Below, piece after piece: positions 5,750 to 63,620 of a stretch of DNA of 64,000 bases; the first letter of the stretch is position 1; each line of letters begins with the position of its first letter. The notes beneath the pieces are model-generated. The model did no database searches, was not told the origin of the DNA, and worked only from the letters and a program-made list of their open reading frames with translations. The stretch covers positions 11,904,001 to 11,968,000 of the forward strand of contig JBMRGM010000038.1 of NCBI GenBank assembly GCA_052327205.1, given 5' to 3'. Source of the DNA: Somniosus microcephalus (Eukaryota). Position numbers and translations under genes: made by a program.

Positions 5750-5822
5750 GTTTCCATAGTGTAGTGGTTATCATGTCCGCCTAACACGCAAAAGGTCCCC
5801 TGTTAGATATCGGGCAGAAACA
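5750..5822 (+). pseudogene. tRNA-Val(AAC), probably pseudogene
   Basis: 73 nt Val body with ctAACac loop and TTTT after; B box mutated (gttagatat) and stem mismatches. Confidence 0.8.
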
Positions 5823-15021: not shown

Positions 15022-15105
15022 AGGACTCATTTGTGACTTGAACTGCGGATTTCTCGGAAATTTAAACAACCACCGATGCGAAAATCGGACGCCGAGAACG
15101 CCAGT
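15022..15105 (-). pseudogene. tRNA-Pro(CGG)-like pseudogene with intron-like insert
   Basis: Degenerate homologue of 24897-24976 and 58251-58325. Confidence 0.5.
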
Positions 15106-15785
15106 TCAAACCTAGCCGAGTGAGGAGGTAACCATTGTAAAACCATTTAGTATGTGGCTATTCTAAATGAGCTGTTAGGACGTTAATGTATCCAGGCTGC
15201 AGGAGGCCACCCCAGGCGCAGCAGAGGAGTCTCTGCATTAGTTCTGCGAGGAAACAGTACTTTTCTCTTCTCTCTTCCTCTTCTCTATATCCCTGTGTTT
15301 TGATTTCTATAGTTATTCCCCCTGTCTCAGTTTCCTGAATCATAACACGGTGCTGTCATTTTTGGAGATGCATTTACTTTGATATTTATTGAAAGGACAC
15401 CCAGACGGACTGATTGAAACTGCAATTTGAATCCTGTCGCTGACCCTGTGTTTTCCGCTTAATCTGTGTTGTTCTGCTTCCACATTCTCAATGAGAAAGT
15501 TCAGAGCCTCAATTTTTAAATAAAGGCCCACCTCTTCAAATAGTGACACCGAGCGGGAGATTCCCTAAATCAGCGACACATTTCCCCAAATCCTCCTTAC
15601 AGTACCACAAGCCAAACTGTGTCCTATATGGGAAATATAAATGAGAATTACTTCACTCACTGTGACGCTGCCATTTGAATGGCATAATTCGCCTGATAAT
15701 GCCTATTTTATTTATACTTAAACAAACATGTAAATTATTGCAGTTTTCATATTTACTAATCTTGAATGGAGAAAAGGCATTAAAT

Positions 15786-16403: not shown

Positions 16404-16758
16404 TACTTTGTGCACCCCTTCAACACAGGGGAACTGATCAGTGAACTCCCTCTGCTGATTGGTTCACCTTAAACAGCATCACTCAATATAAAGGATGAGC
16501 TCACAAAATCAGCCGCAGTGCAGTCTGGTCAACGACAGCCCTCCTTTCTTTATCAACAGAGGAAGAACAGACATGAACCGGAGTCAGACGCCACAAACTT
16601 TAAGTAAAGGCACAAATACGAGTAACACATACTTCCAAATCATTTCACTGAAACATTTTTCACTTGATGTAAAAGCTGACCACGTTGGATCTGAAAATGA
16701 GCACCATGGGATATTTTGTTCACTATTGATTCTATACTCGGTGAGCAGTGAAGCAAAG

Positions 16759-16831
16759 TCTTCTGTAGTGTAACGGTTATCACTTTTGCTTTGCACGCAA
16801 AAAGTCTCAGGTTCGAGCCCGGGTGGAAACA
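16759..16831 (+). pseudogene. tRNA-Val-body pseudogene with TGC anticodon
   Basis: 73 nt; tttgc-ttTGCac-gcaaa arm, intact gttcgagc; acceptor stem mismatched. Confidence 0.75.
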
Positions 16832-17111: not shown

Positions 17112-17195
17112 AGGGACAGTTTTTGATTTGAACTGCGGACGTCACGGAAATTTAAACAACCACCGAAGAGAAAATTGGACCTCGAGAACGCTGGT
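17112..17195 (-). pseudogene. tRNA-Pro(CGG)-like pseudogene with intron-like insert
   Basis: Homologous position and sequence (ggaaatttaaacaaccaccgaag). Confidence 0.5.
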
Positions 17196-17858
17196 TCAAA
17201 CCTAGCCGTGTGATGAGGTAACTATTGTATAACCATTTTCTGTATGTGGCTATTCTTAATGAGCTGTTAGGTCGTTAATGTATCCGGGCTGCAGGAGGCC
17301 ACCCCAGGCGCAGCAGAGGAGTCAGTATTTTTCCCCTCCTCTGTTCCTCTTGTCTATATCCCTGTGCTTTTATTTTCGTATTTATTCCCCGTGTCTCAAT
17401 TTCTTGAAATATAACATGGTGGGGACATTTTAAGAGACGCGATTTCTATGTTACTTATTGAAAGGAGACGCAGACGGAACGACTGAAACTGCAATTTGAA
17501 TCCGGTCACTGACCCTGTGCTTTTCTATTAATCTGTGTTGTTCTGCTTCCACATTCTCAATGAGAAAGTTCCGAGCCTCAATTTTTAAATAAATTAAGTC
17601 CCACCTCTTCAAGGAGCGACACGCGAGCCGGAGATTCCCTAAATCAGCGCCAACATTCCCCAAATCCTCCTTACAGTACCGCAACCAAAACTGTGTCCTA
17701 TATGGGAAATATCATTGAGAATTACTTCGCTCACTGTAACGCTGCCATTTGAGTGGCATAATTCGCCTGTCAATGCGTATTTTATTTATACTGAACCAAA
17801 AATGCAAATTATTCCAGTTTTCATATTTACTAAACCTGAATGGAGTAAGGCATCAATT

Positions 17859-18567: not shown

Positions 18568-18640
18568 TGTTCCCGTCCGGGCTCGAACCGGAGACTTTTC
18601 GCGTGCAAAGCGAATGTGATAACCACTACACTACAGGAAC
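18568..18640 (-). tRNA. Structurally intact Val-body tRNA with TGC anticodon
   Basis: 73 nt; acceptor gttcctg/cgggaac + A73, anticodon arm ttcgc-ttTGCac-gcgaa, T arm tccgg-ttcgagc-ccgga, intact A and B boxes. Confidence 0.85.
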
Positions 18641-19347: not shown

Positions 19348-19430
19348 AGCGCTCGTTTGTGATTTGAACCGCGGACTTCTCGGAAATTTAAACAACCACC
19401 GCAGTGAAAATCGGACCCCGAGAACGCTGG
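19348..19430 (-). pseudogene. tRNA-Pro-like pseudogene with intron-like insert
   Basis: Reverse complement ...ccgagaagtccgcggttcaaatcacaaacgagcgc (Pro T arm and 3' acceptor). Confidence 0.6.
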
Positions 19431-19820
19431 TTCAAACCTAGCTGAGTGATAAGGTAACTATTGTATAACCATTTTCTGTATGTGTCTATTAATCTGTGTT
19501 GTTCTGCTTCCACATTCTCAGTGTGAAAGTTCCGAGCCTCAATATTTAAATAAAATAAGTCCCACCTCTTCAAGGGGCGACATTCAATCCGCAGATTCCC
19601 TAAATCAGCGCCAACTTTCCCCAAATCCTCCTTACAGTACCGCAACCAAAACTGTGTCCTTTATGGGAAATATCATTGAGAATTACTTCACTCACTGTGA
19701 CGCTGCCATTTGAATGGCTTAATTCGCCCGCCAAAGCCTATTTTATTTATACTGAACCAAACATGCAAATTATTCCAGTTTTCATATTTACTAAACTTGA
19801 ATGGAGAAAAGGCATTAAAT

Positions 19821-24619: not shown

Positions 24620-24896
24620 GTTACATTCGCCAGCAGTTTATGCTGTGCATTGACCAATCCTGTTAATTTAAAAAAAAGTTGCCCCAGATTTCTGCTTTCA
24701 TAAGCAATGAATATTTTAAACCAGGTTCCTGAAATACAATGTGCAAAATGAAATATGGTAAACAGTTCATTACTTACAAAGGGCAAAATGCGTTATTGAA
24801 GTGTGTTTCGCTTTTATTTCATTCTGTAAATTATGGTAATCGGTTATTTAATGGTGATTGCAAAAGATTCAACTTCCAATAGTGGCGGCAAAACGA

Positions 24897-24976
24897 GCGC
24901 TCCTTTGTGATTTGAACCGCGGACTTCTCGGAAATTTAAACAACCACCGAAGCGAAAATCGGACCCCGAGAACGCC
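24897..24976 (-). pseudogene. tRNA-Pro(CGG) pseudogene with intron-like insert
   Basis: Reverse complement gattttcgcttCGG-tggttgtttaaattt-ccgagaagtccgcggttcaaatc. Confidence 0.7.
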
Positions 24977-25744
24977 GGTTCAAACCGAGCCGAGTGAGGA
25001 TCTAACCATTGATAAAAGAATTTGTGTGTGTGGCTATTCTTCATGATCAGAGCACCTGAGATCGAGAAAGTGTCTTTGCCTTTTCGACCTGTCTTCTGAA
25101 GCGCCGCCCGGTCCCACTCCTACAGTTAATGAGCTGTTAGGACGTTAATGTATCCGGGCTGCAGGAGGCCGCCCCAGGCGCAGCAGAGGGGTCCCGGCAT
25201 TAGTTCTGCGTGGAAACAGTATTATCCCCTTCTCGCTTCCTCTTCTCTATATCCATGTGCTTTTATTTCTCTATTTCTACTCCCGTCTCAGTTTCCTGAA
25301 TCATAACATGGTGCGGACATTTTTACAGACGCGCGTTTATATTACTTATTGAAAGGACACACAGTTGGAACGTTTGAAACTGCAATTTGAACCCTGTCGC
25401 TGACTTTGTGTTTTCCTATTAATCTTTATTGTTCTGCTTCCACATTCTCAATGAGAAACTTCTCAGCCTCAATTTTTAAATTAAATATGACCGACCTCTT
25501 TAGTCAGCGACACGCGAGGGGAGATTCCTTAAATCAGCGCCAACTTTCCCCAAATCCTCCTTAATGTCCCGCTATCTGTGTCCTATAAGGGAAATATCAT
25601 TGAGAATTACTTCACTCACTGTAACGCTGCCATTTGAAAGGTATAAATCGCCTGTCAATGCGTCTTTTATTTCTACTGAACCAAACATGCAAATTATTCC
25701 AGTTTTCATATTTACTAAACTTGAATGGAGAAAAGGCATTAAAT

Positions 25745-26454: not shown

Positions 26455-26516
26455 TGTTCCCGCCCGGGCACCTTTCGCGTGTAAAGCGAACGTGATAACC
26501 ACTACACTACGGGAAC
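26455..26516 (-). pseudogene. tRNA-Val(TAC) pseudogene, T loop deleted
   Basis: Acceptor, D and anticodon arms intact (ttTACac); gttcgag segment missing. Confidence 0.85.
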
Positions 26517-27222: not shown

Positions 27223-27303
27223 AGCGCTCCTTTGTGATTTGAACCGCGGACTTCTCGGAAATTTAAACAACCACCGAAGTGAAAATCGGACCCCGAGAAC
27301 GCT
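27223..27303 (-). pseudogene. tRNA-Pro(CGG) pseudogene with intron-like insert
   Basis: Homologue of 24897-24976. Confidence 0.65.
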
Positions 27304-28070
27304 GGTTCAAACCTAGCCGAGTGAGGATCTAACCATTGATAAAAGAATTTGTGTGTGTGGCTATTCTTCATGATCAGAGCACCTGAGATCGAGACAGTGT
27401 CTTTGCCTTTTCGACCTGTCTTCTGAAGCGCCGCCCGGTCCCACTCCTACAGTTAATGAGCTGTTAGGACGTTAATGTATCCGGGCTGCAGGAGGCCGCC
27501 CCAGGCGCAGCAGAGGAGTCCCGGCATTAGTTCTGCGTGGAAACAGTATTTTCCCCTTCTCTCTTCCTCTTCTCTATATCCATGTGCTTTTATTTCTCTA
27601 TTTCTACTCCCGTCTCAGTTTCCTGAATCATAACATGGTGTGGACATTTTTACAGCCGCGCTTTTATATTACTTATTGAAAGGACACACAGTTGGAACGA
27701 TTGAAACTGCAATATGAATCCTGTCGCTGAACTTATGTTTTCCTATTAATCTTTATTTTTCTGCTTCCATATTCTCAATGAGAAACTTCTCAGCCTCAAT
27801 TTTTAAATAAAATATGACCGATCTCTTTAGTCATCGACACGCGAGGGGAGATTCCCTAAATCAGTGCTAACTTTGCCCAAATCCTCCTTAAATCCCGCTA
27901 TCTGTGTCCTATATGGGAAATATCATTGAGAATTACTTCACTCCTTGTAACGCTGCCATTTGAAAGGTATAATTCGCCTGTCAATGCGTATTTTACTTAT
28001 ACTGAAACAAGCATGCAAATTATTCTAGTTTTCATATTTACTAAACTTGAATGGAGAAAAGGCATTAAAT

Positions 28071-28786: not shown

Positions 28787-28859
28787 TGTTCCCGCCAGGG
28801 CTGCAACCGGGGACTTTTCGCGTGCAAAGCTAGCGTGAAAACCACCACACTACGGGAAC
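28787..28859 (-). pseudogene. tRNA-Val-body pseudogene with TGC anticodon
   Basis: 73 nt, ttTGCac loop; B box damaged (ggttgcagc). Confidence 0.75.
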
Positions 28860-33247: not shown

Positions 33248-33408
33248 CATTACTTACAAAGGGCAAAATGCGTTATTGAAGTGTGTTTCGCCTTTCTTTC
33301 ATTCTGTAATTAATGGTAACCGGTTATATAATGGTGTTTGCAAAAGATTCAACTTCAAGTTCAATAGTGGCGGCAAAACGAGCGCTCGTTTGTGATTTGA
33401 ACCGCAGA

Positions 33409-36400
33409 CTTGGCAGGGGGATGGGGTACAGAGTGGAGCTATAGTAGGGGGTGATTGACAGCCAAATACAGAGGGAAAAACAAGTCAGCTGGGAAGGCAA
33501 AGCAAATATGTGAAGGCAAAAGAGAATATGGCAGGGCTGGAAGGCATTTATTTTAATGCAAGGAGTCTTGCAAATAAGGTGGATGAACTGAAGTTGTTGT
33601 TGAACACATGGGAGTACGATATTGTTGCTATCACGGAGACATGGTTGAGGGAGGGTCAGGACTGGCAGCTCAATATTCCGGGGTATAGAATCTTCAGGCG
33701 AGACAGAGGGGGGTGTAAAAGGGGAGGGGGTGTTGCAATATTAATTAAGGAGTCAATTACTGCTGTAAGGAGGGATGATATATTAGCGGGTTCCTCTAAT
33801 GAGGCCATATGGGTAGAACTTAAAAACAAAAAGGGGGCAAACACTTTGCTGGGAGTGTACTATAGGCACCCAAACAGTCAGGGGGAGATAGAGGAACAGA
33901 TATGTAGGCAAATCTCAGAAAAGTGCGAAAATAATAGGGTAATAATAGTGGGGGATTTCAACTTCCCCAATATAAATTGGGATAGTCAGAGTGTGAAAGG
34001 CTTAGAGGGTGCAGAATTCTTAAAGTGCATCCAGGAGAGCTTTTTGAGCCAACATGTAGAAAGTCCTACAAGAGAGGGGGCGGTACTGGACCTAATTCTG
34101 GGGAATGTAGCCGGGCAAGTGGTGGAAGTGTCAGTAGGAGAGCATTTTGGCGACAGTGACCACAATTCGGTGAGATTTAAGGTGGTCATGGAAAAAGACA
34201 AAGACAGCCCGGAAATAAGGGTTCTAAATTGGGGGAAGGCCGATTTTAATATGATAAGGCAGGATCTGGCCAAATTGGACTGGGAGCAGCTACTTATAGG
34301 AAAATCCGCATCAAAACAGTGGGAGACTTTCAGAAGGGAAATAGAGAGAGTACAACGCCAACATGTTCCTGTAAAGGTCAAGGGTGGGACCAACAAGCAA
34401 AGGGAACCTTGGATGACAAGGGATATACAAAAATGCATTAGAAATAAAAGGGGGGCTTTTGGCAGTTACAAAAACTAAAGACGGAAGAAGCCCTAGAGGA
34501 GTATAAAAAATGCAGGGGCATACTTAAAAAAGAAATTAGGAGGGCGAGGAGGGGCCATGAAATAACACTGGCGAGCAAAATAAAGGAAAATCCTAAGATG
34601 TTTTATAAGTATATTAAGGGCAAGAGGATAACCAGGGAAAGGGTAGGGCCCATTAGGGACCAAAGCGGCAATCTGTGTGTAGAGCCAGATGATGTAGGCG
34701 GGGTTTTAAATGAATTTTTTGCATCTGTGTTCACTATGGAGAAAGATGATGCAGACATAGAAATCGGGCAAGGGGGCTGTGACATACTTGAACATATTAG
34801 CATCGAGAGGGAGGAGGTGCTATCGGTTTTAGCAGGCCAAAAAGTGGATAAATCCCCAGGCCCGGACGAGATGTATCCCAGGCTGCTGTGGGAGGCAAAG
34901 GAGGAGATTGCAGGGGCTCTGACACAAATTTTCAGAACCTCTCTGGCCACAGGGGATGTACCAGAGGACTGGAGAACAGCTAACGTAGTACCATTATTCA
35001 AGAAGGGTAGCAGGGATAAACCAGGGAATTACAGGCCAGTGAGCCTAACATCTGTGGTAGGGAAATTATTGGAAAAAATTCTGAGGGACAAAATTAGTCT
35101 CCACTTGGAGAGGCAAGGATTAATCGGGGATAGTCAGCATGGCTTTGTCAAGGGTAAATCATGTCTGACAAATCTGATTGAATTTTTCGAGGGGGTGACT
35201 AGGGGGGTGGATGAGGGAAATGCTGTGGATGTGGTTTACATGGACTTCAGTAAAGCTTTTGACAAAGTCCCGCATAGGAGACTGGTCAAGAAGGTAAGAG
35301 CCCATGGGATCCAGGGTGCCTTGGCGCGTTGGATCCTAAACTGGCTGAGTGGCAGGAGGCAGAGGGTGATGGTCGAAGGTTGCTTTTGTGACTGGAAGCC
35401 TGTGTCCAGTGGGGTACCTCAGGGATCGGTGCTGGGTCTCTTGTTGTTTGTGATCTACATAAATGATTTGGATGAGAATGTAAAAGGTATGATCAGTAAG
35501 TTCGCAGATGACACGAAAATTGGTGGGGTGGTAAATTGTGAGGAGGAAAGCCTCAGGCTACAGGACGATATAAACGGGTTGGTCAGATGGGCGGAAAAGT
35601 GGCAAATGGAATTTAACCCTGAAAAGTGCGAGGTGATGCATTTTGGACGGACAAATAAGGCAAGGGAATACACAATGAGTGGTAGGACCCTAGGAAGTAC
35701 AGAGGGTCAGAGGGACCTTGGTGTACATGTACATAGATCCCTGAAGGCAGCGGAACAGGTAGATAAGGTGGTTAAAAAGGCATATGGGATACTTGCCTTC
35801 ATTAGCCGAGGCATAGAATATAAGAGCAGGGAGGTTATGATGGAGCTGTACAAAACGCTGGTGAGGCCACAGCTGGAGTACTGTGTGCAGTTCTGGTCGC
35901 CTCACTATAGGAAGGATGTGATTGCTTTGGAGAGGGTGCAGAGAAGATTCACCAGGATGTTACCTGGGATGGAGCGCCTCAGCTATGAAGAGAGGCTGGA
36001 CAGGCTGGGGTTGTTTTCCTTGGAGCAGAGAAGGCTGAGGGGGGACCTGATTGAGGTGTACAAAATGATGAGGGGCATAGTTAGGGTAGATAAAGAGGGA
36101 CTTTTCCCCTTAGTAGGGGGGTCAATAACAAGGGGGCATAGATTCAGGGTAAGGGGCAGGAGATTTAGAGGGGATTTGAGGAGGAACTTTTTCACCCAGA
36201 GTGTGGATGGAATGTGGAACTCAATGCCTGAAAGGTTGGTGGAGGCAGGAACCCTCACAACATTCAAGAAGCATTTGGATGAGCACTTGAAATGCCATTG
36301 CATACAAGGTTATGGACCAAATGCTGGAAAATGGGATTAGACTGGACAGGGATGGATGGGCGGCGCAGACACGATGGGCCGAAGGGCCTCTTTCTGTGCT

Positions 36401-36430
36401 GTAAAACTCTATGACTCTATGACTCTATGA
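33409..36430 (+). mobile_element. CR1 LINE, 5' truncated, inserted in a tRNA-Pro-like pseudogene
   Basis: Complete ORF2 span and (gactctat)n tail; Pro-like gene split between ~33381-33410 and 36431-36485. Confidence 0.95.
33510..36340 (+). pseudogene. CR1 ORF2 (APE endonuclease + reverse transcriptase) with one frameshift
   Basis: ORFs 33510-34478 and 34598-36340; 1-nt deletion near 34472 relative to the 45072 copy; FADD motif intact. Confidence 0.9.
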
Positions 36431-37069
36431 CTTCTCGGAAATTTAAACAACCACCGAAGCGAAAATCGGACCCCGAGAACGCTGGTTCAAACCTAGCCGA
36501 GTGAGGATCTAACCATTGATAAAATAATTTGTGTGTGTGGCTATTCTTCATGATTAGAGCATTGAGAGGAGAAAGTGTCCATGTGCTTTTATTTCTCTAT
36601 TTCTACTCCCGTCTCAGTTTCCTGAATCATAACATGGTGCGGACATTTTACAGCCGCGCTTTTAGATTACTTATTGAAAGAACACACAGATGGAACGATT
36701 GAAACTGCAGTTTGAATCCTGTCGCTGACCTTGTGTTTTTCTGTTAATCTTTATTGTTCTGTTTCCCCATTCTCAATGAGAAACTTCTCAGCCTCAATTT
36801 TAAAAAGAAATATGACCGACCTCTTTATTCAGCGACACGCGAGGGGAGATTCCCTAAATCAGCGCCAACTTTCCCCAAATCCTCATTAAAGTCCCGCTAT
36901 CTGTTTCCTATGTGGGATTTATCACTGAGAATTACTTCACTCACTGTGACGCTGCCATTTGAAAGGTATAAGTCGCCTGTCAATGCGTTTTTTATTTATA
37001 CTGAACCAAACATGCGAATTATTCCAGGTTTCATATTTACTGAACTTGAATGGAGAAAAGGCATTAAAT

Positions 37070-37814: not shown

Positions 37815-37887
37815 TGTTCCCGCCCGGGCTAGAACCGGGGAACTTTCACGTGCAAAGCAAACGTGATAACCACTACACTACCGGCAC
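37815..37887 (-). pseudogene. tRNA-Val-body pseudogene with TGC anticodon
   Basis: ttTGCac loop; acceptor stem and B box mutated. Confidence 0.75.
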
Positions 37888-38590: not shown

Positions 38591-38670
38591 GCGCTCGTTT
38601 GTGATTTGAACCGCGCACTTCTCGGAAATTTAAACAACCACCGAAGCGAAAATCGGACCCCGAGAATGCT
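38591..38670 (-). pseudogene. tRNA-Pro(CGG) pseudogene with intron-like insert
   Basis: Reverse complement ttcgcttCGG-tggttgtttaaattt-ccgag...ggttcaaatcacaaacgagcgc. Confidence 0.7.
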
Positions 38671-39205
38671 GGCTCAAACCTAGCCGAGTGAGGATCTAAC
38701 CATTGATAAAATAATTTGTGTGTGTGGCTATTCTTCATGATCAGAGCATTGAGACGAGAAAGTGTCTTTGCCTTTTCGACCTGTCTTCTGAAGCGCCGCC
38801 CGGTCCCACTCCTACAGTTAATGAGCTGTTAGGACGATAATGTATCCGGGCTACAGGAGGCCACCCCAGGCGCAGCAGAGGAGTCCCGGCATTAGTTCTG
38901 CGTGGAAACAGTATTTTCCCCTTCTCTCTTCTTCTTCTCTATATCCATGTGCTTTTATTCCTCTATTTCTACCCCGTCTCAGTTTCCTGCATCATAACAT
39001 GGTGGGGATATTTTAGAGATGCGCTTTTTTTATTATTTAATGAAAGGACACCCAGACGGAGCGATTGAAACTGCAATTTGAATCCTGTCGCTGGCCTTGT
39101 GTTTTCCTGTTAATCTGTGTTGTTCTGCTTCCACATTCTCAATGAAAAATTTCCCAGCCTCAATTTTTAAATAAAATAAGACCCACATCTTATGTTAGCA
39201 ACAAG

Positions 39206-41284: not shown

Positions 41285-41365
41285 AGCGCACGTTTGGGAT
41301 TTGAAAATCGGAATTCTCGGAAATCTAAACAACTACCGAAGCGAAAATCGGACCCCGAGAGCGCC
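41285..41365 (-). pseudogene. tRNA-Pro(CGG) pseudogene with intron-like insert
   Basis: Reverse complement ttcgcttCGG-tagttgtttagattt-ccgag. Confidence 0.6.
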
Positions 41366-42137
41366 GGTTGAAACCTGGCCGAGTGAGGAGCTCTCCATTG
41401 TAAAACCATTTTGTGTGTGTGGCTATTCTTGATGACCAGAGCACTTGAGACCGAGACAGTGTCTTTGCCTTTTTGATCTGTCTTCTGAAGCGCCGCCTGG
41501 TCCCACTCCTACAGTTAATGAGCTGCAAGGGCGTTAATGTATCCGGGCTGCAGAAGTCCACCCCAGGCGCAGCAGAGGAGTCCCGGCATTAGTTCTGCGT
41601 GGAAACAGTTTTTTCCCCTTCTCCCTTCCTCTTCTCTATATCCATGTGCTTTTATTTCTCTATTTCTACCCCCATCTCTTGAATCATACCATGGTGGGTC
41701 ATTTTTAGAGACGCGCTTTTTTATTACTTATTGACAGGACACCCAGACGGACCGATTGAAACTGCAGTTTGAATCCTGTCGCTGACCCTGTGTTTTCCTA
41801 TTAATCTGTGTTGTTCTGCTTCCACATTCTCAATGAGAAAGTTCTCTGCCTCAATTTTTGAATAAAATAAGGCCCACCTCTCATGTTAGCGACATGCGAG
41901 GGGAGATTCCCTAAATCAACGCCAACTTTCCCCAAATCCTCCTTACAGGACCGCAACCAAAACTGTGTCCTATATGGGAAATATCATTGAGAATTACTTC
42001 CCTGACTGTAACGTTGCCATTTGAATGGCATAATTCGCCTGTCAATGCCTATTTTATTCATACTGAAACAAACATGCAAATTATTCCAGTTTTCATATTT
42101 ACTAAACTTGAATGGAGAAAAGGCATGAAATTGGCTT

Positions 42138-44262: not shown

Positions 44263-47200
44263 ACAAGTCGGACGGGTTGCACCTGAACCAGAGCGGGACA
44301 AATATCCTTGCGGGGAGGTTTGCTAGCACTGTTGGGGGGGGTTTAAACTAACTTGGCAGGGGGATGGGATACAGAGGGGAGCTGAAATAGGGGGTGATGT
44401 GCTGCCAATTATACAGAAAAAACAAGTCAGCTTGGTAGACAGGGCAAATATATAAGGGCAAGGCTGGATGGCATCTATTTTAATGCAAGGAGTCTTGCAA
44501 ATAAGGTGGATGAACTGAAAGTGTTGAGAAACACATGGGAGTATGATATTGTTGCTATCACGGAGACATGGTTGAGGGAGGGGCAAGACTGGCAGCTCAA
44601 TATTCTGGGGTACAGAATCTTCAGGTGAGACAGAGGGGGAGGTATAAGAGGAGGGGGTGTCGCAATATTAATTAAGGAGTCAGCACGGTGGCATAGTGGT
44701 TAGCACTGTTGCCTCACAGCGCCAGGGACCCGGGTTCAAATCCGGCCTCGGGTGACTCTCTGTGTGGAGTTTGCACATTCTCCCCGTGTTTGCGTGGGTT
44801 TCCTCCGGGTGCTCCGGTTTCCTCCCACAGTCCAAAGATGTGCGGGTTAGGTTGATTGGCTATGATAAATTGACCCTTAGTGTTAGGGGGATTAAATAGG
44901 TGGGGTTACGTGTTGGTGTAGGGGTTACGGGGATCGGGTGGGATATGTGTCGGTGCAGGCTCGATGGGCCGAAATGGCCTCTATCTGCACTGTGGGGATT
45001 CTGTGATTCTGTGAATTACTGCAGTAAGGAGGGATGATATATTAGCAGGTTCCTCTAATGAGGCCATATGGGTGCAACTTAAAAACAAAAAGGGGGCAAG
45101 CACTTTGCTGGGAGTGTACTATAGGCCTCCAAACAGTCAGGGGGAGATAGAGGAACAGATATGTTGGCAAATCTCAGAGAAATGTGCAAATAATAGGGTA
45201 ATAACAATGGGGGATTTCAACTTCCCCAATATTAACTGGGATAGTCAGAGTGTGAAAGGCTCAGAGGGAGCAGAATTCTTAAAGTGCATCCAGGAGATCT
45301 TTTTGAGCCAGCATGTAGAAAGTCCTACAAGAGAGGGGGCGGTACTGGACCTAATTCTAGGGAATGTGGCCGGCCTAATGGAAAAAGTGCTAGTAGGTGA
45401 GCACTTTGGTGACAGTGACCATAATATGGTGAGATTTAAGGTGGTCATGGAAAAGGACAGGGATGGGCCGGAAATAAATGTTCTAAATTGGGGGAAGGCC
45501 GATTTTAATAGGATAAGGCAGGATCTAGCCAAAATGGACTGGGATCAGCTACTTGTAGGAAAATCCGCATCGGAGCAATGGGAGGCTTTCAGAAGGGAGA
45601 TTGAGATCATACAATGGCAACATGTTCCCGTAAAGGTCAAGGGTGGTTCCAAAAACCACAGGGAACCTTGGATGTCAGGGGATATACGAGAATGGATTAG
45701 GAATAAAAGGAGGGCTTTTGGCAGATACAAAAGGCTAAAGACGGAGGAAGCCCTAGAGGAGTACAAAAAGTGCAGGGGGATACTTAAAAAAGAAGTTAGG
45801 AGATCAAGGAGGGGCCATGAAATAACACTGGCGAGCAAAATAAAGGAAAATCCTAAGATGTTTTATAAGTATATTAAGGGTAAGAGGATAACTAGGGAAA
45901 AAATAGGGCCCATTAGGGTCAAAAGTGGCAATCTGTGTGTGGAGCCGGAAGATGTAGGAGGGGTTCTAAATGAATTTTTTGCATCTGTTTTCACTATGGA
46001 GAAGGACGATGTAGACATAGAAATAGGGCGGGGGGACTGTGATATGCGCGAACATATTAACATTGAGAGGGAGGAGGTATTGGCGGTTTTAGCTGGCCTA
46101 AAAATGGATAAATCCCCAGGCCCGGATGAAATGTATCCCAGGCTGCTGTGTGAGGCAAAGGAAGAGATTGCGGGGGCTCTAACACATATATTCAGGACCT
46201 CTCTGGCCACAGGGGATGTGCCAGAGGACTGGAGAACCGTTAATGTAGTACCATTATTCAAGAAGGGAAGTAGGAAAAACCGGGGAGCTACAGGCCAGTG
46301 AGCCTAACATCAGTGGTAGGAAAATTATTGGAAAAAATTCTGACAGACAAAATTTGTCTCCACTTGGAGAGGCAAGGATTAATCAGGGATAGTCAACATG
46401 GCTTTGTCAAGGGAAGATCATGTCTGACTAATTTGATTGAATTTTTTGAGGGGGTGACTAGGTGTGTGGATGAGGGTAACGCAGTGGATGTGGTATACAT
46501 GGATTTCAGTAAGGCCTTCGATAAAGTCCCGCACAGGAGACTGGTCAAGAAGGTAAGAGTCCATGCAATCCAGGGTGCCTTGGCACATTGGATACAAAAC
46601 TGGCTTAGTGGCAGAAGGCAGAGGGCGATGGTCGAAGGTTGTTTTTGTGACTGGAAGCTTGTGGACAGTGTGGCACCACAGGGATCGGTGCTGGGTCCCT
46701 TGCTGTTTGCGGTCTACATTAATGACTTGGATATGAATGTAAAAGGTATGATCAGTAAGTTCGCGGATGATACAAAAATTGGTAGGGTGGTAAATAGCGA
46801 GGAGGGTAGCCTCAGTCTGCAGGATGATATAGATGGGTTGGTCAGATGGACGGAACAGTGGCAAATGGAATTTAACACGGAAAAGTGCGAGGTGATGCAC
46901 TTTGGGGGGACTAACAAGGCAAGGGAATACACAATGAATGGTAAGACCCTAGGCAAGACGGAGGGTTAGAGGGATCTGGGTGTGCAAGTACACAGATCCC
47001 TGAAGGCGGCGGAACAGGTGGATAAGGTGGTAAAAAAGGCATATGGGATACTTGCCTTCATTAGCCGAGGCATTGAATATAAGAGCAAGGAGGTTATGAT
47101 GGAGCTGTATAAAACACTGGTTAGGCCACAGCTGGAATACTGTGTGCAGTTCTGGTCGCCACACTACAGGAAGGATGTGATCGCGTTGGAGAGGGTGCAG

Positions 47201-47671
47201 AGGTGGTTCGCCAGGATGTTACCAGGGCTGGAGCGCTTCAGCTCTGAAGAGAGACTGGGCAGATTGGGTTTGTTTTCCTTGGAGCAGAGGAGGCTGAGGG
47301 GGGACATGATTGAGGTGTACAAAATTATGAGGGGCATAGATAGGATGGATGCTGAGGAGCTTTTTCCCTTAGTAGAGGGGTCAATAACTAGGGGGCATAG
47401 ATTCAAGGTAAAGGGCGGGAGGTTTAAAGGGGATTTGAGAAAGAACTTTTTCACCCAGAGGGTGGTTGGAGTCTGGAACTCACTGCCTGAAAGGGGTGTG
47501 GAGGCAGGAACCCTCACAACATTTAAGAAGCATTTGGATGAGCACTTGAAATGCCATAGCATACAAGGCTACGGACCAAATGCTGGAATATGGGATTAGA
47601 TTAGACAGGGCTTGATGGCCGGCGTGGACACAATGGGCCGAAGGGCCTCTATCTGTGCTGTATAACTCTAT
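44263..47671 (+). mobile_element. CR1 LINE (end of ORF1 plus disrupted ORF2) with nested SINE; tail interrupted by MITEs
   Basis: ORF2 pieces 45072-46301, 46298-46969, 46982-47599, close paralogue of the 33510 copy; array sequence resumes at ~49756. Confidence 0.95.
44682..45013 (+). mobile_element. V-SINE (HE1-like) nested in CR1 ORF2
   Basis: Same family as 39206-39547; splits aaggagtc|aattactgc, which is intact in the 33510 copy; gattctgt tail. Confidence 0.95.
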
Positions 47672-48353
47672 GGCCTAGAAATTCAGTGCCCTTAGCGCCG
47701 ATTTTGCGGCGCTAGAGGGCCTAGCGCTGCAATTGGCGCCGGCGCCGAAATTGCCTGGGGCCCTTCCGCCACGGTAGACCGGTAGCGCTGCGCCAGCACC
47801 GATGACGTCATTGGTGTGCGCAGCGTCCCGGTTGCCATGCCGACGGGCCCCAGCACCGAAATTCAGTTGCGGCCGCCTCGCCCGTGGCAGCCGCAACTAA
47901 GACTCTGGCAACAGAGTCTTACATGACTTTGCGCCGGCGCATTAAAGGCCCCGCGGCGGCCGGCCGCTTTCCCGCCGGCCGCCTGGCCGCAGCTCCCTCC
48001 CCGGACTTCCCCCCCCCCCCGGAACAGAAGCAAGCCCGGCACTTGTCCGAGGTGCCGGGCTCATTTTTAAAAAGATTTTCGCGGGCCGCGGCCGGGTGCA
48101 GGCAGCTCCTCCTTAAGGGAAGGAGGAGGCCTGCACTTCCCGAACCTGCCGCACCGCAGCAGGCGCCGCAGCGCCGGAATAGCGCCGAAATTCAGTGCGT
48201 TGCGCCAGTTTTCAGGCGCAAACAGCTCTCAGCAGCGCCGGCAGCCGTTTGGGCGCAGAACTATTGAATTTTGGGCCCGGCCAGCGCGACTTAGCTCCGG
48301 CACTAACTTCCGGCGCTAAAGCCCTGGCTGCGCCAAAACACAATTTCTAGGCC
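47672..48353 (-). mobile_element. Harbinger MITE 1
   Basis: TIR GGCCTAGAAATT / AATTTCTAGGCC; flanks TAT/TTT; inverted near-copy of MITE 3. Confidence 0.9.
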
Positions 48354-48364
48354 TTTGACTCTAT

Positions 48365-49062
48365 GGCCTAGAAATTGAGTTGGCGCCACGCCAGGGCTTT
48401 AGCGCCGGAAATTTAGCGCCGGCGCTAAGTCCCCCTGCGCGCGCCAAAAATTCAGTAGCGCCGCGGCCAGACGGCTGCCGGCGCTACTGGAGGGTGTCAG
48501 CGCCTCGCAATGGGCGCTGACTGCCGCATTGCGGCACTAATCCGCCGCTGCGGCACCCGATGCGGTGCGGCAGGCTGGGGAAGTGCAGGCCTCCTCCTTC
48601 CGTTAAGGAGGAGCTGCCTGCACCCGACCGCTGGCCGTTGATCTGTGGAGAAAAATGAGCCCGGCACCTCGGAGAAGTGCCGGGCTCGCGGCCCACACGC
48701 ATCTGTGCCGCGGGGGGGTGTTGGAGGAGTCCGGGGAGGGAGGTGCAGGCAGGCGGCCGCCGGGAAAGCGGCCGGCCGCCACGCGACCTTAATGCGCCGG
48801 TGCTAAGACCCGTAGCGAACTTTTGAAAAATCGTTGGTTGCGGCTGCCACGGGTGAGGCGGCCGCAACTCAATTTCGGCATTCGGGCACGTTGCCACGGC
48901 AACCGGGACGCTGCGCACACCGATGACGTCATCGGTGCCGGTGCAGCGCAACCGGCTAACGCCAATGGCAGCGCCCAAGTGAATTTCTCAATCGGCTGTA
49001 CTTGCGGCGCTAGGCCCTCTAGCGCCTCAAAATGGGCGCTAACGCCACTCAATTTCTAGGCC
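48365..49062 (+). mobile_element. Harbinger MITE 2 (diverged subfamily)
   Basis: TIR GGCCTAGAAATTGAGT / ACTCAATTTCTAGGCC; TAT duplication. Confidence 0.9.
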
Positions 49063-49065
49063 TAT

Positions 49066-49747
49066 GGCCTAGAAATTGAGTTTTGGCGCTGCCAGGGCTT
49101 TAGCGCCGGAAGTTAGTGCCGGAGCTAAGTCGCGCTGGTCGGGCCCAAAATTCACTGGTTCTGCGCCCAAACGGCTGCCGGCGCTGCTGAAAGCTGTTAG
49201 CGCCTGAAAACTGACGCTATGCACTGAATTTCGGCGCTATTCCGGCGCTGCGGCGCCCGCTGCGGTGCGGCAGGTTCGGGAAGTGCAGGCCTCCTCCTTC
49301 CCTTAAGGAGGAGCTGCCTGCACCCGGCCGCGGCCCGCGATAATCTTATTAAAAATGAGCCCGGCACCTCGGACAAGTGCCAGGCTTGCTTCTGTTCCGG
49401 GGGGGGGGGGAAGTCCGGGGAGGGAGCTGCGGCCAGGCGGGCGGCGGGAAAGCGGCCGGCCGCCGCGGGGCCTTTAATGCGCCGGCGCAAACTTGTGCAA
49501 GGCACCTCTGCCAGAACGTTGCTTGCGGCTGCCACGGGCGAGGCGGCCGCAAGTCAATTTCGGCGCTGGGGCCTGTCACCACAGCAACCGGGACGCTGCG
49601 CACACCGATGACGTCATCGGTGCCGGCGCAGCGCTACCGGTCTACCGCGGCGGAAGGGCCCCAGGCAATTTAGGTGCCGGCGCCAATTGCAGCGCTAGGC
49701 CCTCTAGCGCCGCAAAATCGGCGCTAAGTGCACTGAATTTCTAGGCC
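49066..49747 (+). mobile_element. Harbinger MITE 3
   Basis: Same TIR core; TAT on both sides. Confidence 0.9.
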
Positions 49748-56263: not shown

Positions 56264-57376
56264 AACTGTCTCGAGGGGCTGAACAGCCTCCTCCTGTTCC
56301 TATGTAACAGGCTCAATGGGCTGAACAGCCTCCTCCTGTTCCTATTTAACAGGCTCAAAGGGGCTGAACAGCCTCCTCCTGTTCCTATGTAACAGGCTCA
56401 AGGGGCTGAACAGCCTCCTCCTGTTCCTATGTAACAGGTTCGAGGGGCTGAACAGCCTCCTCCTGTTCCTATGTAACAGGCTCAATGGGCTGAACAGCCT
56501 CCTCCTGTTCCTATGTAACAGGTTCGAGGGGCTGAACAGCCTCCTCCTGTTCCTATTTAACAGGCTCGAGGGGCTGAACAGCCTCCTCCTGTTCCTATGT
56601 AACAGGTTCGAGGGGCTGAACAGCCTCCTCCTGTTCCTATTTAACAGGCTCGAGGGGCTGAACAGCCTCCTCCTGTTCCTATGTAACAGTCTCGAGGGGC
56701 TGAACAGCCTCCTCCTGTTCCTATGTAACAGGCTCGAGGGGCTGAACAGCCTCCTCCTGTTCCTATGTAACAGGCTCAAGGGGCTGAACAGCCTCCTCCT
56801 GTTCCTATGTAACAGGCTCGAGGGGCTGAACAGCCTCCTCCTGTTCCTATGTAACAGGCTCGAGGGGCTGAACAGCCTCCTCCTGTTCCTATGTAACAGG
56901 CTCGAGGGGCTGAACAGCCTCCTCCTGTTCCTATGTAACAGGCTCGAGGGGCTGAACAGCCTCCTCCTGTTCCTATGTAACAGGCTCGAGGGGCTGAACA
57001 GCCTCCTCCTGTTCCTATGTAACAGGCTCGAGGGGCTGAACAGCCTCCTCCTGTTCCTATGTAACAGGCTCGAGGGGCTGAACAGCCTCCTCCTGTTCCT
57101 ATGTAACAGGCTCGAGGGGCTGAACAGCCTCCTCCTGTTCCTATGTAACAGGCTCGAGGGGCTGAACAGCCTCCTCCTGTTCCTATGTAACAGGCTCGAG
57201 GGGCTGAACAGCCTCCTCCTGTTCCTATGTAACAGGCTCGAGGGGCTGAACAACCTCCTCCTGTTCCTATGTAACAGGCTCGAGGGGCTGAACAGCCTCC
57301 TCCTGTTCCTATGTAACAGGCTCGAGGGGCTGAACAGCCTCCTCCTGTTCCTATGTAACAGGCTCGAGGGGCTGAA
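56264..57376. repeat. 42-bp minisatellite, ~26 copies, derived from a CR1 3' end
   Basis: AACAGGCTCGAGGGGCTGAACAGCCTCCTCCTGTTCCTATGT; single copy at the homologous position of the direct units. Confidence 0.97.
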
Positions 57377-58250
57377 TGCCCTCCCCCTTTTCCTATTGAG
57401 TTGCTACAATGCAATGCACCCGAGTGCTGGAGGGTTTCCGATGTGTAGCGGGGAGACACACGAAAACTCAACGGTTCGAAAGTGGGGAAAGGCAATTTAA
57501 TGCCTTTACTGCATTCAAATTTAGTTCATATGAAAACTGGAATAATTTACTTGTTTTTAAGCATAAATAAAAGACGCATTGTGAGTGAATTATGATATTT
57601 AAATGGTAGCGTTACAGCGAGTGAAGTAATTCTCAATGATATTCCCCATATAATTTGGGTTGCGATACTGTAAGGAGGAATTGGGGAAATTTGGCGCTGA
57701 TTTAGGGAATGACCCTCTCGCGTGTCGCTACTTGAGGAGGTGGGCCTTATTTTATTTAAAAATTAAGATTCGGAACTTTGTGACTGAGAATGTGGAAGCA
57801 GAACAACACAGATTAATAGAAAAACACAGGGCCAGCGATAGGATTCATATTACAGTTTCAATCGCTCCGTCTGGGTGTCCTTTCAATAAGTAATAAAAAA
57901 ACGCGTCTGTAAAAATGTCCCCCATCATGTTATGATGCAGGAAACTGAGACAGGGGAAACAAATTAACAGGGATATAGACAAGAGGATGAGAGAAGGGGA
58001 AAGATCCCGTTTCCACACAGAACTAATGCCGAGACTCCTCTGCTGCGCCTGGGGCGGCCTCCTGCAGCCCCGATACATTAACGTCCTAACAGCTCATTAA
58101 CTGTAGGAGTGGGACCGGGCGGTGCTTCAGCAGACAGGTCGAAAAGGCAAAGACACTGATTTGGTCTCAAATGCTCTGCCCATCAAGAATAGCCACACAA
58201 TAGATGGTTTTACAATGGTAATCTCTTATCTCGACTAATACCAGCCAATC

Positions 58251-58325
58251 CGCTCGTTGGTCTAGGGGTATGATTCTCGTTTCGGGGTTATTGGTTGAAA
58301 TTTGCGAGAGATCCTGGAGGAGCCC
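58251..58325 (+). pseudogene. tRNA-Pro(CGG) with 16-nt canonical-position intron (58287-58302); T loop deleted
   Basis: cgctcgttggtctaggggtatgattctcgt-ttCGGg-[gttattggttgaaatt]-t-gcgagag...gagccc followed by TTTT. Confidence 0.85.
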
Positions 58326-59443
58326 TAATTTTGCCCGTGGATTTTGAAATGAAGTTGAAACTGTTGCAAAGAAATAACTTCATTAATACGCGCTTTTCAC
58401 GAATTCAGGGCATCCCAAAGCGCTTTACAACCATTGACGTAACTTTGAAGTGTGGTAATGTGAACAAAGATTTGCCCAAATCGCCACCACCTGAATCTGA
58501 ACTCTTTGGGAAGGTGTTCAGTGCAAAGAATCAGACACCTCAATGACTTGGACTTTCTTTGAATGAGCTCTGCCTCTAACTGCACTCGAGCTTAAAACAA
58601 CACCTGGGCCTCCATCTCAGGGGAGCAGAGTGTGGTCGCTGTGCAGCAGTTAGCGAGTTGGTGACGAGCTTGGGGTCGAGCCGCGTCGCATTCGAGCTAT
58701 GAAATTTCACCAAAGGCCAGAGAAAAGATATGCTGAATGTAACTGTCCCTGTGAGCGATGAATTTAAGGGAACACTTAAAAACGTGCAGTGCACTAAAAG
58801 GGTTCCCAACATTAAATGTCAGAGTTATTAAGCATGCAATAAATAGTAATATCATTAACAACAGCACTTAGACAAACCCTTGCGAATTTTAGCCGGAGAA
58901 TTCAAATACGTTATAATTCCAAGTTCGATATACAATTTCGTCAAACTTTTATCGGATTCTAAAGTGTCTGCTCCAAACGTCACTTTGATATCTTATCCTC
59001 ACCTCTTCTACGGGATCATTTGCACGTTTAGTAGTGTTACCTAACACAACTGCACAACTTCTGATGGAAGGTCATCGAACCTCGGTTTCTCTCTCCACAA
59101 ATGCTGCCTGAACTGCTGAGTGTTACCAGCATTTTCTCTTCTTATTACCCGACCTTGTTACCAGAGTATCACTCCCCTTATCTCCTTCCTTACATGTTGC
59201 CTTGTCAGAAAAACAGACTCCTTTCGCACAACGGGATTTTCTGGTCCAAGCATTAATTGGAACAATAAATTCTTAAGGATAATAACAAATTGCAACATCT
59301 CAAACGGATGTAGCGTCTCAAACTAATACAACACCTCAAACTTACACAGTACCTGAAACTAATAAATGCCTAGAACTAATTCAGCACCTCAAACGAATAC
59401 AGCCCCTCAAAAAATTGCAGCTGCTCATACTAAGTCATCACCT

Positions 59444-62400
59444 CATAGTGTCATAGATTTATACAGCACAGAAAGAGGCCCTTGGGCACATCGTGGCCGT
59501 GCAGGCCATCATGCCCTCTCTATTCTAATCCCATTTTCCAGCACTTGGTCCGTTGCCTTGTATGCTATGGGGTTTCAAGTGCTCATCTAAATGCTTCTTG
59601 AATGCTGTGAGGGCTCTTGCCTCTACCACCCTTTGAGCCAGTGATTTCCAGATTCCAACCACCCTCTGGGTGAAAAAGTTTTTCCCCAGATCCCCTCTAA
59701 ACCTCCTGCCACTTACCTTGAAACTATGCCCTCTGGGTATTGACGCCTCAACTAAGGGGAAAAGTTCCTTTCTGTCTACCTATGCTCCTCATAATTTTGT
59801 ACACATCAATCAAGTCCCCACCCAACCTTCTCTGCTCTAATGAAAACAACCCCAGCCTGTCCAGTCTCTCTTTATAGCTGGAACGCTCCAGTCCAGGTAA
59901 TATCCTGGTGAAACTCCTCTGCACCCTCTCAAATGCAATCACATCCTTCCTATGGTATGGCGACCAGAACTGCACACAGTATTCCATTTGTGGTCTAACT
60001 AACGTTTTGTACAGCTCCATCACAACGTCGCTGCTCTTATATATATTGCGTCGGCTAATGAAGGCAATTATCCCATAAGCCTTTTTAACCACCTTATCTA
60101 CCTGTCCTGCTGCCTTCAGGGATCTATGCACATGCACACCAAGGTCCCTCTGATCCTCTGTCCTTGATAGGGTCCTACCATTCATTGTGTATTCCCTTGC
60201 TGTGTTACTCTTCACAAAATGCATCACCTCACAATTTTCAGGGTTAAATTCCGTTTGACACTGTTCTGCCCATCTGACCAACCTATCTATATCGTCCTGT
60301 AGCCTGAGGCTTCCCTCCTCACTATTGACCACTCCAACAATTTTCGTGTCATCTGCGAACTTACTGATCATACCTCCTACATTCGTATCTAAATCATTAC
60401 TGTACACTACAAACAGCATAGGACCCAGCACCGATCCCGGCAGTTCACCACTGGAGACAGGCTTCCAGTCATGAAAGCAACCTTCGGCCATCACCCTCTG
60501 CCTCCTGTCACGAAGCCAATTTTGGATCCAATGTGCCAAATTTCCCTGGATCCCATGGGCTCTTATCGTCTTGATCAGTCTCCCATGCGGGACTTTGTCA
60601 AAAGCCTTACTGAAATACATGTAGTCTACATCAACTGCTCTACCCTCATCCACAAAACTAGTCACCCCCTCGAAAAATTCCATCAAATTGGTTAGACATG
60701 ATCTCCCCTTGACAATGCCATGCTGACTATCCTTGATTAATCATTGCCTCTCCAATTGGAGAGTAATTCTGTCCCTCAGAATTGTTTCCCATAATTTCCC
60801 AACCACTGATGTTAGGTTCACTGGCCTGTAATTCCCTTGTTTATCCCTACTACACTTCTTGAATAATGGTACTACGGTGTTTGTCCTCCAGTCGTCTGGC
60901 AGCTCCCCTGTGGCCAGAGAGGATCTGAAAATTTGTGTCAGAGGCCCTGCTATAATCTCCCTCGCTTCACAGAGCAGCCTGCGATACATCTCGTCTGGGC
61001 CTGAGGATTTATCCAATTTGAAGCCCGTTAAAACCGCTAGTGCCTCCTTCCTCTCAACACTAATTTGTTCAAGTATATCACAATCTCCCTGCCTGATTTC
61101 TCTGCCTACATCAACCTTCTCCATAGTGAACACAGATGCAAAATATTCATTTAAAACCTCAACTACGTCTTCCAGCTCTACACACAGCTTGCCACTTTGG
61201 TCCCTAATGTGCCCTATTCTTTCCCTGTTTATCCACTTGCCCTTAATATATTTATAACGCACCTTGGGATTTTCCTTAATTTTGCCCGCCAGTGTATTGT
61301 CATGCCCCCTCTTCGCTCTCCTAATGACTTTTTTAAATAACCCCCTGCAAATTCTATACTCCTCTAGGGCTTCCACTGTCTTTAGTCCTTTATATCTGCC
61401 AAAGCCTCCCTTTTTTTCCTAATCCATTCTTGTATATCCCTTGACATCCAGGGTTCCCTGGAATTTTTGGTCCCACTTTTGACCTTTATGGGAACATGTT
61501 GGCGTTGTACTCTCCCTAATCCCTATCGGAATGGATCCCACTGCTCTGATGTGGATTTTCCTGGAAATAGCTGAAGCCAGTCCACTATGGCCAGATCCTG
61601 CCTTATCATATTAAAATCGGCCTTCCCACAGGTTAGAACCTTTATTTCCGGTCCACCTGTGTCCTTTTCCATGATTACCTTAAATCTCACCGAATAATGG
61701 TCACTGTCAGCAAAATGCTCTCCTAATGCCACTTCTACCAATTGCCCGGTTACTTTCCCTAGAATTAGGTCCAGTACCGCCCCTTCTCTTGTAGGGCTTT
61801 CTAAATGCTGGCTCAACAAGCTCTCCTGGATGCACTTTAAGTATTATGCACCCTCTAAAGCTTTCACACTATGACCATCGCAGTTAATATTGGGGAAGTT
61901 GAAATCCCCTACTATTATTTCACTATTATTTCTACACTTCTCTGAGATTTACCTACATATCTGTTCTACGATCTCCCCATGACTGTTTGAGGGCCTGTAG
62001 TAGACTCCGAGAAAAGTGCTTGCCCCCTTTTCGTTTTTAAGTTCTACCCATATGGCTTCATTAGAGGAACCTGCTAAGATATCATCCCTCCTAACAGCAG
62101 TAATTGCCTCCTTGATGAATATTGTGACAACCCCTCCTCTTTTACACCCCCTCTGTCTCGCCTGAAGATTCTATACCATGGAATATTGAGCTGCCAGTCC
62201 TGTCCCTCCCTCAACCATGTCTCTGTGATAGCAACAATATCCTACTCCCATGTGTTCATCAATACCTTCAATTCATCTGCCTTTCTCGTAAGAATCCTTG
62301 CATTAAAATAAATGCCATCCAGCCTTGCCATACACCCTGCTGCCATTATCTATTTGTGCTGCCATCCAGACTGACTTGTTTTGTCCTCTATATTTGGCTG

Positions 62401-63620
62401 TGCATTACCGTCTGCTGCAGCTCCACTCTGTATCCCACCCCCCTGCCAAGTTAGTTTAACCCCCCTGCAACAGCACTAGCAAGCTTCCCCACAAGGATGT
62501 TTGTCTGTTCCGGTTCAAGTGCAACCCGTCCGACTTGTACAGGTCCCACCTTCCCCAGAAGCAGGCCCACTGATCCAGGAAACTAAAGCACTCCCTCCTG
62601 CACCAAAACTTTAGCCACGCATTCATTTGCTCTATTCTCCAATTCATATATTCTCTAACACGTGGCACCGGGAGTAATCCAGACATTACTACCTTTGAGG
62701 TCCTGCTTTTTAATCTGCTACCTAGCTCCCTAAATTCTTGTTGCAGGACCTCATCCGTCTTTCTACCTATGTCACTGGTACCAATGTGAACCACGACCTC
62801 TGAATGTTCGCCCTCCCCCTTCAGAATGCCCTGCAGCCGTTCAGTGACATCCTTGACCCTAACACCAGGGAGGCAACATACCATCCTGGAGTCACGACTG
62901 CGACCACAGAAACACCTGTCTGCACCCCCCACTATCCTACCACTATTGCACTTCCACTCTTACTCCTCCCCCCCTTGTGCAGCTGAGCCACCCACAGTGC
63001 CGTGAACTTGGCTCTGGCTGCACTCCCCAGAGAAACCGTCACATTCACCGTTTCCCAACACAGAAAAATGGTTGTTGAATGAGATGCACTCTGGGACTTT
63101 CCTGACAAATTGCCTGCCCCGCTTCTTCTGACTGGTGGTCACCCATTCCCTCTCTGACAGCACTTTCTTAAGCTGCGGGTGACCACGCCTAAAAACGTGC
63201 TATCCACATAATTCTCAGTCTCGCGGATACACAGCAGTGCCTCCAGCTGACACTCGAGCTCCGAAAACCGGATCTCAATTTGGCCAAACCGTTGGCACTT
63301 ATTGCACACGTGGTCTTCCTGACTGAAAGAAGCATCTAGGAATTCCCACATGCTGCAGGCCATGCAACTCACGGGACTAAGGTGCCCTGGCATACTTATA
63401 AATAAAAAACTCATACCTGAAATTTAAGCTCTCGGATTGTTGCTCTCCCGAAAAGCATTAACTATGAACTACCTTAAAAGAAATTAACATAGAATTGAAA
63501 AAAAAGCACTCACCTACTACTCATCAATCAGATTCTTCCCCTGCGCCAGCGTGACTTTCTTTACTCTGACGTCACTCTCGAATTCTGCCGCCGCTCCTGC
63601 TGCTCGACTGGGCCTGAAAA
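59444..63620 (-). mobile_element. CR1 LINE, near full length, degenerate (ORF1 zinc finger + esterase, ORF2 APE + RT)
   Basis: CMACSMWE...HVCNKC (63139-63414), CLPG...HIGTSD...DGLHL (62456-62932), KFADD (59748-60686), catag tail. Confidence 0.95.

Follow-up and report, generated by a model that had tools for sequence, protein, structure and literature searches.

The 64,000-nt stretch of Somniosus microcephalus DNA analysed here (the window) contains a decayed tandem array with units of 2.1-2.7 kb, interrupted by LINEs. Each array unit comprises a minus-strand Val-type remnant, a plus-strand Val-type remnant and a minus-strand Pro remnant. Eight Pro copies lie in the direct orientation; together with a single inverted copy (n = 9), all carry a CGG anticodon (9/9). 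The features are listed below by position in the window.

13491-55251: the decayed tandem array, LINE-interrupted
15023-15107, minus strand: direct Pro(CGG) pseudogene with a 13-nt insert; register of the 5' end uncertain
17113-17197, minus strand: direct Pro(CGG) pseudogene with a 13-nt insert
19349-19433, minus strand: direct Pro(CGG) pseudogene with a 13-nt insert
24897-24981, minus strand: direct Pro(CGG) pseudogene; position 37 and the insert at 24933-24946
27224-27308, minus strand: direct Pro(CGG) pseudogene with a 13-nt insert
33382-36488, minus strand: direct Pro(CGG) copy split by a LINE at the variable loop; 5' part and insert at 36429-36488, 3' part at 33382-33411
38591-38675, minus strand: direct Pro(CGG) pseudogene with a 13-nt insert
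41286-41370, minus strand: direct Pro(CGG) pseudogene, insert with two substitutions
57357-58237, plus strand: upstream flank of the inverted copy, a 0.9-kb fragment of an inverted unit (79-86% identity to the unit flanks)
58251-58286, plus strand: 5' exon (positions 1-37) of the best preserved of the tRNA-Pro(CGG) pseudogenes, whose orientation is opposite to that of the array
58283-58285, plus strand: CGG anticodon of the inverted copy
58287-58302, plus strand: 16-nt insert at 37/38, a putative intron; its excision restores the anticodon stem
58303-58325, plus strand: 3' exon without T arm and B box (about 13 nt deleted)
58329-58332, plus strand: T4 run, a likely RNA polymerase III terminator, starting 4 nt downstream of the inverted copy

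Read directly from the window, 58251-58325 (+) is a tRNA-Pro(CGG) pseudogene whose 5' exon (36 nt) and 3' part (23 nt) enclose a 16-nt insert. The acceptor stem retains 5/7 pairs, the D stem 3/4 and the anticodon stem 5/5 (one of them G.U). The loop reads U32, U33, the CGG anticodon, G37 and U38, and U8, A14, G18, G19, A21 and U33 are all retained. Every excision length from 0 to 30 nt was tried in the loop region, and 16 nt was the sole length that gave a 5/5 stem with a 7-nt loop. At this length three of the eight cut positions (after 36, 37 or 38) keep CGG, and the choice of 37/38 among them follows from a loop sequence that we take to be that of tRNA-Pro (G37, U38). The Pro identity of the body of the copies beyond the CGG anticodon is likewise presumed. 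The preliminary description of this locus had placed a 16-nt insert at 37/38 of a CGG-bearing body that had lost its T loop. All three points were confirmed: the stem-restoring excision is unique, with 37/38 depending on the presumed Pro loop, the anticodon is present, and part of the T arm is missing.

The direct copies carry a related insert of another length. The distance from the anticodon to position 38 is 14 nt in 8/8 direct copies (T37 plus 13 nt) versus 17 nt (1 plus 16) in the inverted copy. Seven of the eight direct inserts are identical; we did not take this identity as a sign of selection, since there are too few independent lineages. The inverted and direct forms share a core and an identical 3' end, but their alignment needs two small indels. 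Thus, the two forms are homologous, not identical. The insert had been described as the same in the direct units; a related insert does occur in the copies at 24897, 38591 and 41286 and in five more, but it is 3 nt shorter and follows T37. A loop insert was found in 9/9 Pro copies versus 0/15 aligned Val-type copies, the 15 being all but a few of the Val remnants.

The bodies of the direct copies are badly decayed. T stems hold 0-1/5 pairs (seven direct copies), D stems 1-2/4, and acceptor stems 1-4/7, the last on an uncertain 5' register. In the direct copies that are uninterrupted, positions 54-58 always read TTCAA (7/7), and six of the seven keep G53. Direct copies such as those at 24897 and 38591 had been said to keep the T loop, which holds for the loop bases but not for the stem beneath them. 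Most direct copies retain a B box, and a T4 run also follows them. Intact A-box residues were found in the inverted copy only and the B box in direct copies only, and no single copy among the nine Pro copies combines A box, B box and terminator. An intact mature tRNA body for TSEN is absent in 9/9 copies, in which the T arm is lost, the T stem is broken or a LINE splits the gene. The statement that no copy in the window is intact therefore holds, all nine Pro copies being dead.

At none of the nine copies was a Pro gene called correctly, either by Rfam or by ARAGORN with introns allowed, and for 24860-25020 Rfam detected no tRNA up to a threshold of E 10. Lowering the thresholds of ARAGORN with introns produced mainly noise (239-2906 calls from 20 shuffles). 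Folding of whole copies was no better than that of shuffles (z from +0.68 to -1.76). The 5' part of the direct copies contains a 6-9 nt reverse complement of their own 3' exon (matched in 7-198 of 2000 shuffles), and at 24895-24985 (-) and in other direct Pro copies the 5' part folds with the copy's own 3' exon into a long hairpin. Possibly, a template-switch event replaced the 5' strand of the acceptor stem in the direct Pro copies.

Several other elements were recorded in the window. Among the Val-type bodies, a UGC (Ala) anticodon occurs at 18568-18640 (-), 16758-16831 (+), 28787-28859 (-) and 37815-37887 (-), the body assignment being made by alignment to copies with a Val anticodon. The UGC copy at 18568 scores 63.7 bits with a full cloverleaf; it may have undergone an anticodon shift and, if expressed, would misread Ala codons. 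The Val copy at 26455-26516 (-) has lost T-arm sequence much as the inverted Pro copy has, which suggests recurrent deletion between the two T-stem strands. A lone Val(AAC) remnant lies outside the array at 5750-5822 (+). At 56270-57396, on the edge of the inverted fragment, a 42-nt unit is repeated about 27 times at 96% identity. This repeat shares homology with a short part of the array unit, and we take it to resemble a LINE 3' tail. A long inverted repeat occupies 47672-49747 (682-nt arms, 94% complementary, with a GC-rich core and an inner 228-nt inverted pair), and a 500-N assembly gap at 351-850 lies between C-rich and G-rich low-complexity repeats.

The LINE within the Pro variable loop, at about 33412-36428, is near full-length (endonuclease and reverse transcriptase) and has a target-site duplication of 5 nt. 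Two related LINE copies, at about 45014-47672 and 59432-62451, are 84-85% identical. Among the 120 matches listed, the reverse transcriptase of the window LINE showed 70% identity to Scyliorhinus and Hemiscyllium proteins, 61-66% to Hypanus, 56% to one Mobula entry and 44-58% to bird and turtle entries. By these identities, the host of the window LINE is likely an elasmobranch. Some unnamed or bacterial-labelled proteins reached 71-73% identity to the window LINE protein (P0027 and P0059, 71-72%); the bacterial-labelled ones likely represent host contamination of those assemblies. Pattern scans gave no match in metagenome contigs, viral contigs or prokaryote genomes, an uninformative result given how little vertebrate DNA these collections contain. 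A fraction of 0.55-0.62 of 212 words sampled from the region was present in three of the nine sequencing runs listed; these three belong to one study with two organism labels and may include the source sample. None of the nine was an RNA run containing the region's words.

We examined the complementarity between the insert and the anticodon loop. A is found at the third-last insert position (-3) in 9/9 inserts and U32 in 7/9 copies. U32 can pair with the third-last base of the insert, as had been proposed, but such a pair was also available in 2510/5000 shuffled inserts, which makes it a coin toss. In addition, folding of the isolated arm preferred the fourth-last base (pair probability 0.77, versus 0.01 for the third-last). 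This fold predicts a helix between positions 32-36 and -4 to -8 (probability about 0.77-0.80), with a bulge of 4 nt rather than 3 nt. Of the shuffled inserts, 172/5000 gave a full 5/5 helix with an offset of -3 or -4, and the stability of the arm was ordinary (3111/5000 shuffles equally stable). In the direct copy at 24946, 4/5 pairs form in the canonical register. The two pairings given in the preliminary description, the U32/third-last pair and the complementarity of the insert to the anticodon loop (the predicted 5-bp helix), belong to different registers. We regard the pairing, which is itself predicted, as modest evidence for an intron.

The order of events was assessed from the flanks and from the broken positions of the bodies. 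First, the upstream flanks radiate in a nearly star-like manner: the inverted flank is 14-19% from the direct ones, and the direct flanks are 4.5-19% apart from each other. Private flank sites in 650 ungapped columns of six copies numbered 41 in the inverted copy, 38 in the copy at 41335 and 28 in the copy at 15072. Since the flanks radiate star-like and both lineages carry the insert, the insert is older than the radiation of the array. Second, the positions broken in direct copies (14, 21, 39 and 65) show the invariant or pairing state in the inverted copy. Conversely, the positions broken in the inverted copy are intact in direct copies (C31 in 5/5 compared, C67 in 4/7, and the T loop). G67 is common to the inverted copy and 2/7 direct copies, and by sequence comparison no body-breaking substitution is clearly common to both lineages. 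Because each lineage is intact where the other is broken, the gene from which both descend was likely near-canonical in its body and had the insert by then. It is this ancestral state that speaks most strongly against an insertion into a gene long dead. The nine insert-bearing copies count as one evolutionary event and not as nine observations.

At 8/47 body positions versus 41/650 flank positions, the inverted copy is unlike every one of the five direct copies compared (Fisher p = 0.013, post hoc). We considered whether an intact gene had converted the inverted copy and set this aside as unneeded; its lesions, about five in 59 nt, fit neutral decay.

The amplified set of Pro(CGG) pseudogenes with a common insert at the canonical intron site is real and beyond chance. 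Given that the insert predates the spread of the copies and that the lineages have no clearly common body-breaking substitution, we lean towards an ancestor that was an intact, RNA polymerase III-transcribed tRNA-Pro(CGG) gene with an intron at 37/38. The ancestral cluster would have been Val-Val-Pro(CGG), transcribed by RNA polymerase III, of which an A box persists in one lineage, a B box in the other and a T4 run after both. TSEN has been reported to pick its sites by a ruler that measures from the mature body, with relaxed sequence needs (PMC10485636). Given this ruler and these relaxed needs, such an insert would likely have been cut; TSEN would have removed it by measuring from the mature body, and RTCB would have joined the exons. 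The intron may, like that of Pro(CGG) in fission yeast, direct m5C34. The unit would then have been amplified in tandem and one unit inverted, after which the copies would have decayed separately. Working genes, if any remain, would lie outside this window. The nine copies themselves are not members of an active TSEN-intron class, because none has an intact body. The proposed spliced tRNA-Pro(CGG) lineage thus remains the likeliest reading, with an insert that predates the radiation, but it is tempered by weak pairing, by a likeness of the insert to the T loop and by evidence that comes from pseudogenes only.

The T-loop likeness bears directly on how the insert arose. A 9-mer of the inverted insert matches the T loop (positions 52-60 of the direct copies) at 8/9 bases, a match found post hoc and reached in 8/5000 shuffles. 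The direct copies have CGG followed by T at two sites, the anticodon and the point where the 5' strand of the T stem ends. Because this repeat is present at both sites, template slippage could place T-loop sequence at 37/38. The argument from the position of the insert alone is weakened, since slippage could also explain 37/38. The 5' reverse complements in direct copies, and the loss of T-arm sequence from the inverted Pro copy and from Val copy 26455, indicate that slippage was active in these genes. These observations are in line with the alternative that slippage copied the T loop into 37/38 of one gene as a one-off event, which was then amplified with no spliced family behind it; the gene would have been disabled, or the insertion merely tolerated, before the unit was amplified. 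The lack of any intact copy among the nine is in keeping with this alternative. However, the match spans just 9 of the 16 nt, and such an insertion must have been nearly the first lesion, before almost any common decay. Moreover, 37/38 is the one place that the TSEN ruler would likely rescue, so a slippage origin and intron function are compatible. We consider a one-off insertion possible but doubtful. Under the preferred reading of a spliced ancestor, the T-loop likeness offers a candidate mechanism of intron birth.

It is improbable that a real intron was imported from a Tyr, Ile, Leu or Arg family into a Pro pseudogene by recombination or gene conversion. In its favour, fish genomes carry many tRNA gene copies in clusters. 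Intergenic conversion among tRNA genes has also been documented (PMC4090602). However, the two exons form a single paired body on either side of the insert, and import would therefore need two crossovers at the edges of the loop. No donor was found in the window, where the best other match was 11/16 within about 300 nt. Finally, the units could be a tRNA-derived repeat (a SINE head or satellite) spread from an insert-bearing master copy with no link to splicing, as the retention of the B box despite the loss of stems in the direct copies might indicate, but we consider this very improbable given that kilobase flanks and adjacent Val genes accompany the copies in tandem units, that both tRNA ends and the T4 run are kept, and that there is no SINE body or tail.

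A spliced tRNA-Pro(CGG) would be unusual among vertebrates. Human tRNA introns occur in Tyr-GUA, Ile-UAU, Arg-UCU and Leu-CAA (PMC10275265). The preliminary description had placed the proposed intron outside the usual set, and this is backed by PMC12530127, which assigns animal introns to Tyr, Ile, Leu and Arg and describes introns as all but missing from the remaining metazoan tRNAs in GtRNAdb. The same source mentions stray single intron-bearing genes in otherwise intronless nematode families, namely tG(GCC), tV(CAC) and tL(CAG) of Pristionchus. In a survey of 576 genomes, two panels that pool eukaryotes place CGG 9th and 14th among 45 anticodons along their axes (PMC12168002). The elephant shark is included in GtRNAdb data (PMC8450103), and a search of the elephant shark genome supplement (PMC3964593) found no tRNA terms. 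A search of titles and abstract openings, which took in few subscription papers and had GtRNAdb and RefSeq outside its scope, returned no report of a vertebrate tRNA-Pro intron. Older database releases may contain a low-scoring human Pro-AGG gene with an intron.

From the remnants in this window, a new vertebrate tRNA intron class is a plausible candidate, known here from pseudogenes alone. We would suggest only tentatively that sharks and rays have a fifth vertebrate tRNA intron class, made up of functional spliced Pro(CGG) genes elsewhere in the genome, in which a recent intron copied from the T loop is kept through TSEN and possibly through m5C34. If true, an intron in vertebrate Pro(CGG) would represent a gain that can be dated, within a lineage that evolves slowly, and it would provide a natural case for whether introns persist for methylation of the wobble base. 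The T-loop likeness would be a concrete route for the birth of eukaryotic tRNA introns, whose origin is treated as open in PMC4090602. If intact genes exist, automatic annotations may already include them unremarked, and the class would be less novel.

The Pro insert was compared with known tRNA introns. Like the canonical TSEN introns at 37/38, it follows position 37, is short and is partially complementary to the anticodon loop; its -3 base could pair with position 32, a pair available to half of the shuffled inserts as well. At 13 and 16 nt, both forms fall inside the range of 6-133 nt given for eukaryotic tRNA introns (PMC4090602). Among TSEN substrates, the proximal anticodon-intron pair alone seems conserved (PMC10485636). 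The Pro copies differ from the four human families in their isoacceptor, in being pseudogenes only and in a predicted helix whose register is off by one. In S. pombe, tRNA-Pro(CGG) undergoes intron-dependent, Trm4a-dependent m5C34 methylation (PMC6380293), a result repeated in PMC11408192. Here the isoacceptor with an intron and the C34 at the wobble position are the same, but the S. pombe gene is fungal and functional; a vertebrate Pro(CGG) intron likely had an independent origin. The stray Pristionchus genes (PMC12530127) resemble the present case in that a non-standard animal isoacceptor has a predicted intron at 37/38, but differ from it in that nine copies with two insert variants belong here to one amplified unit. 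Intron gain has also been described in yeasts, as in tRNA-Ala(UGC) of Lachancea thermotolerans (PMC4090602). Both cases appear to be recent gains in a family that is intronless in relatives, whereas the yeast genes are predicted to be intact and the copies described here are remnants with a candidate source of the insert, the T loop.
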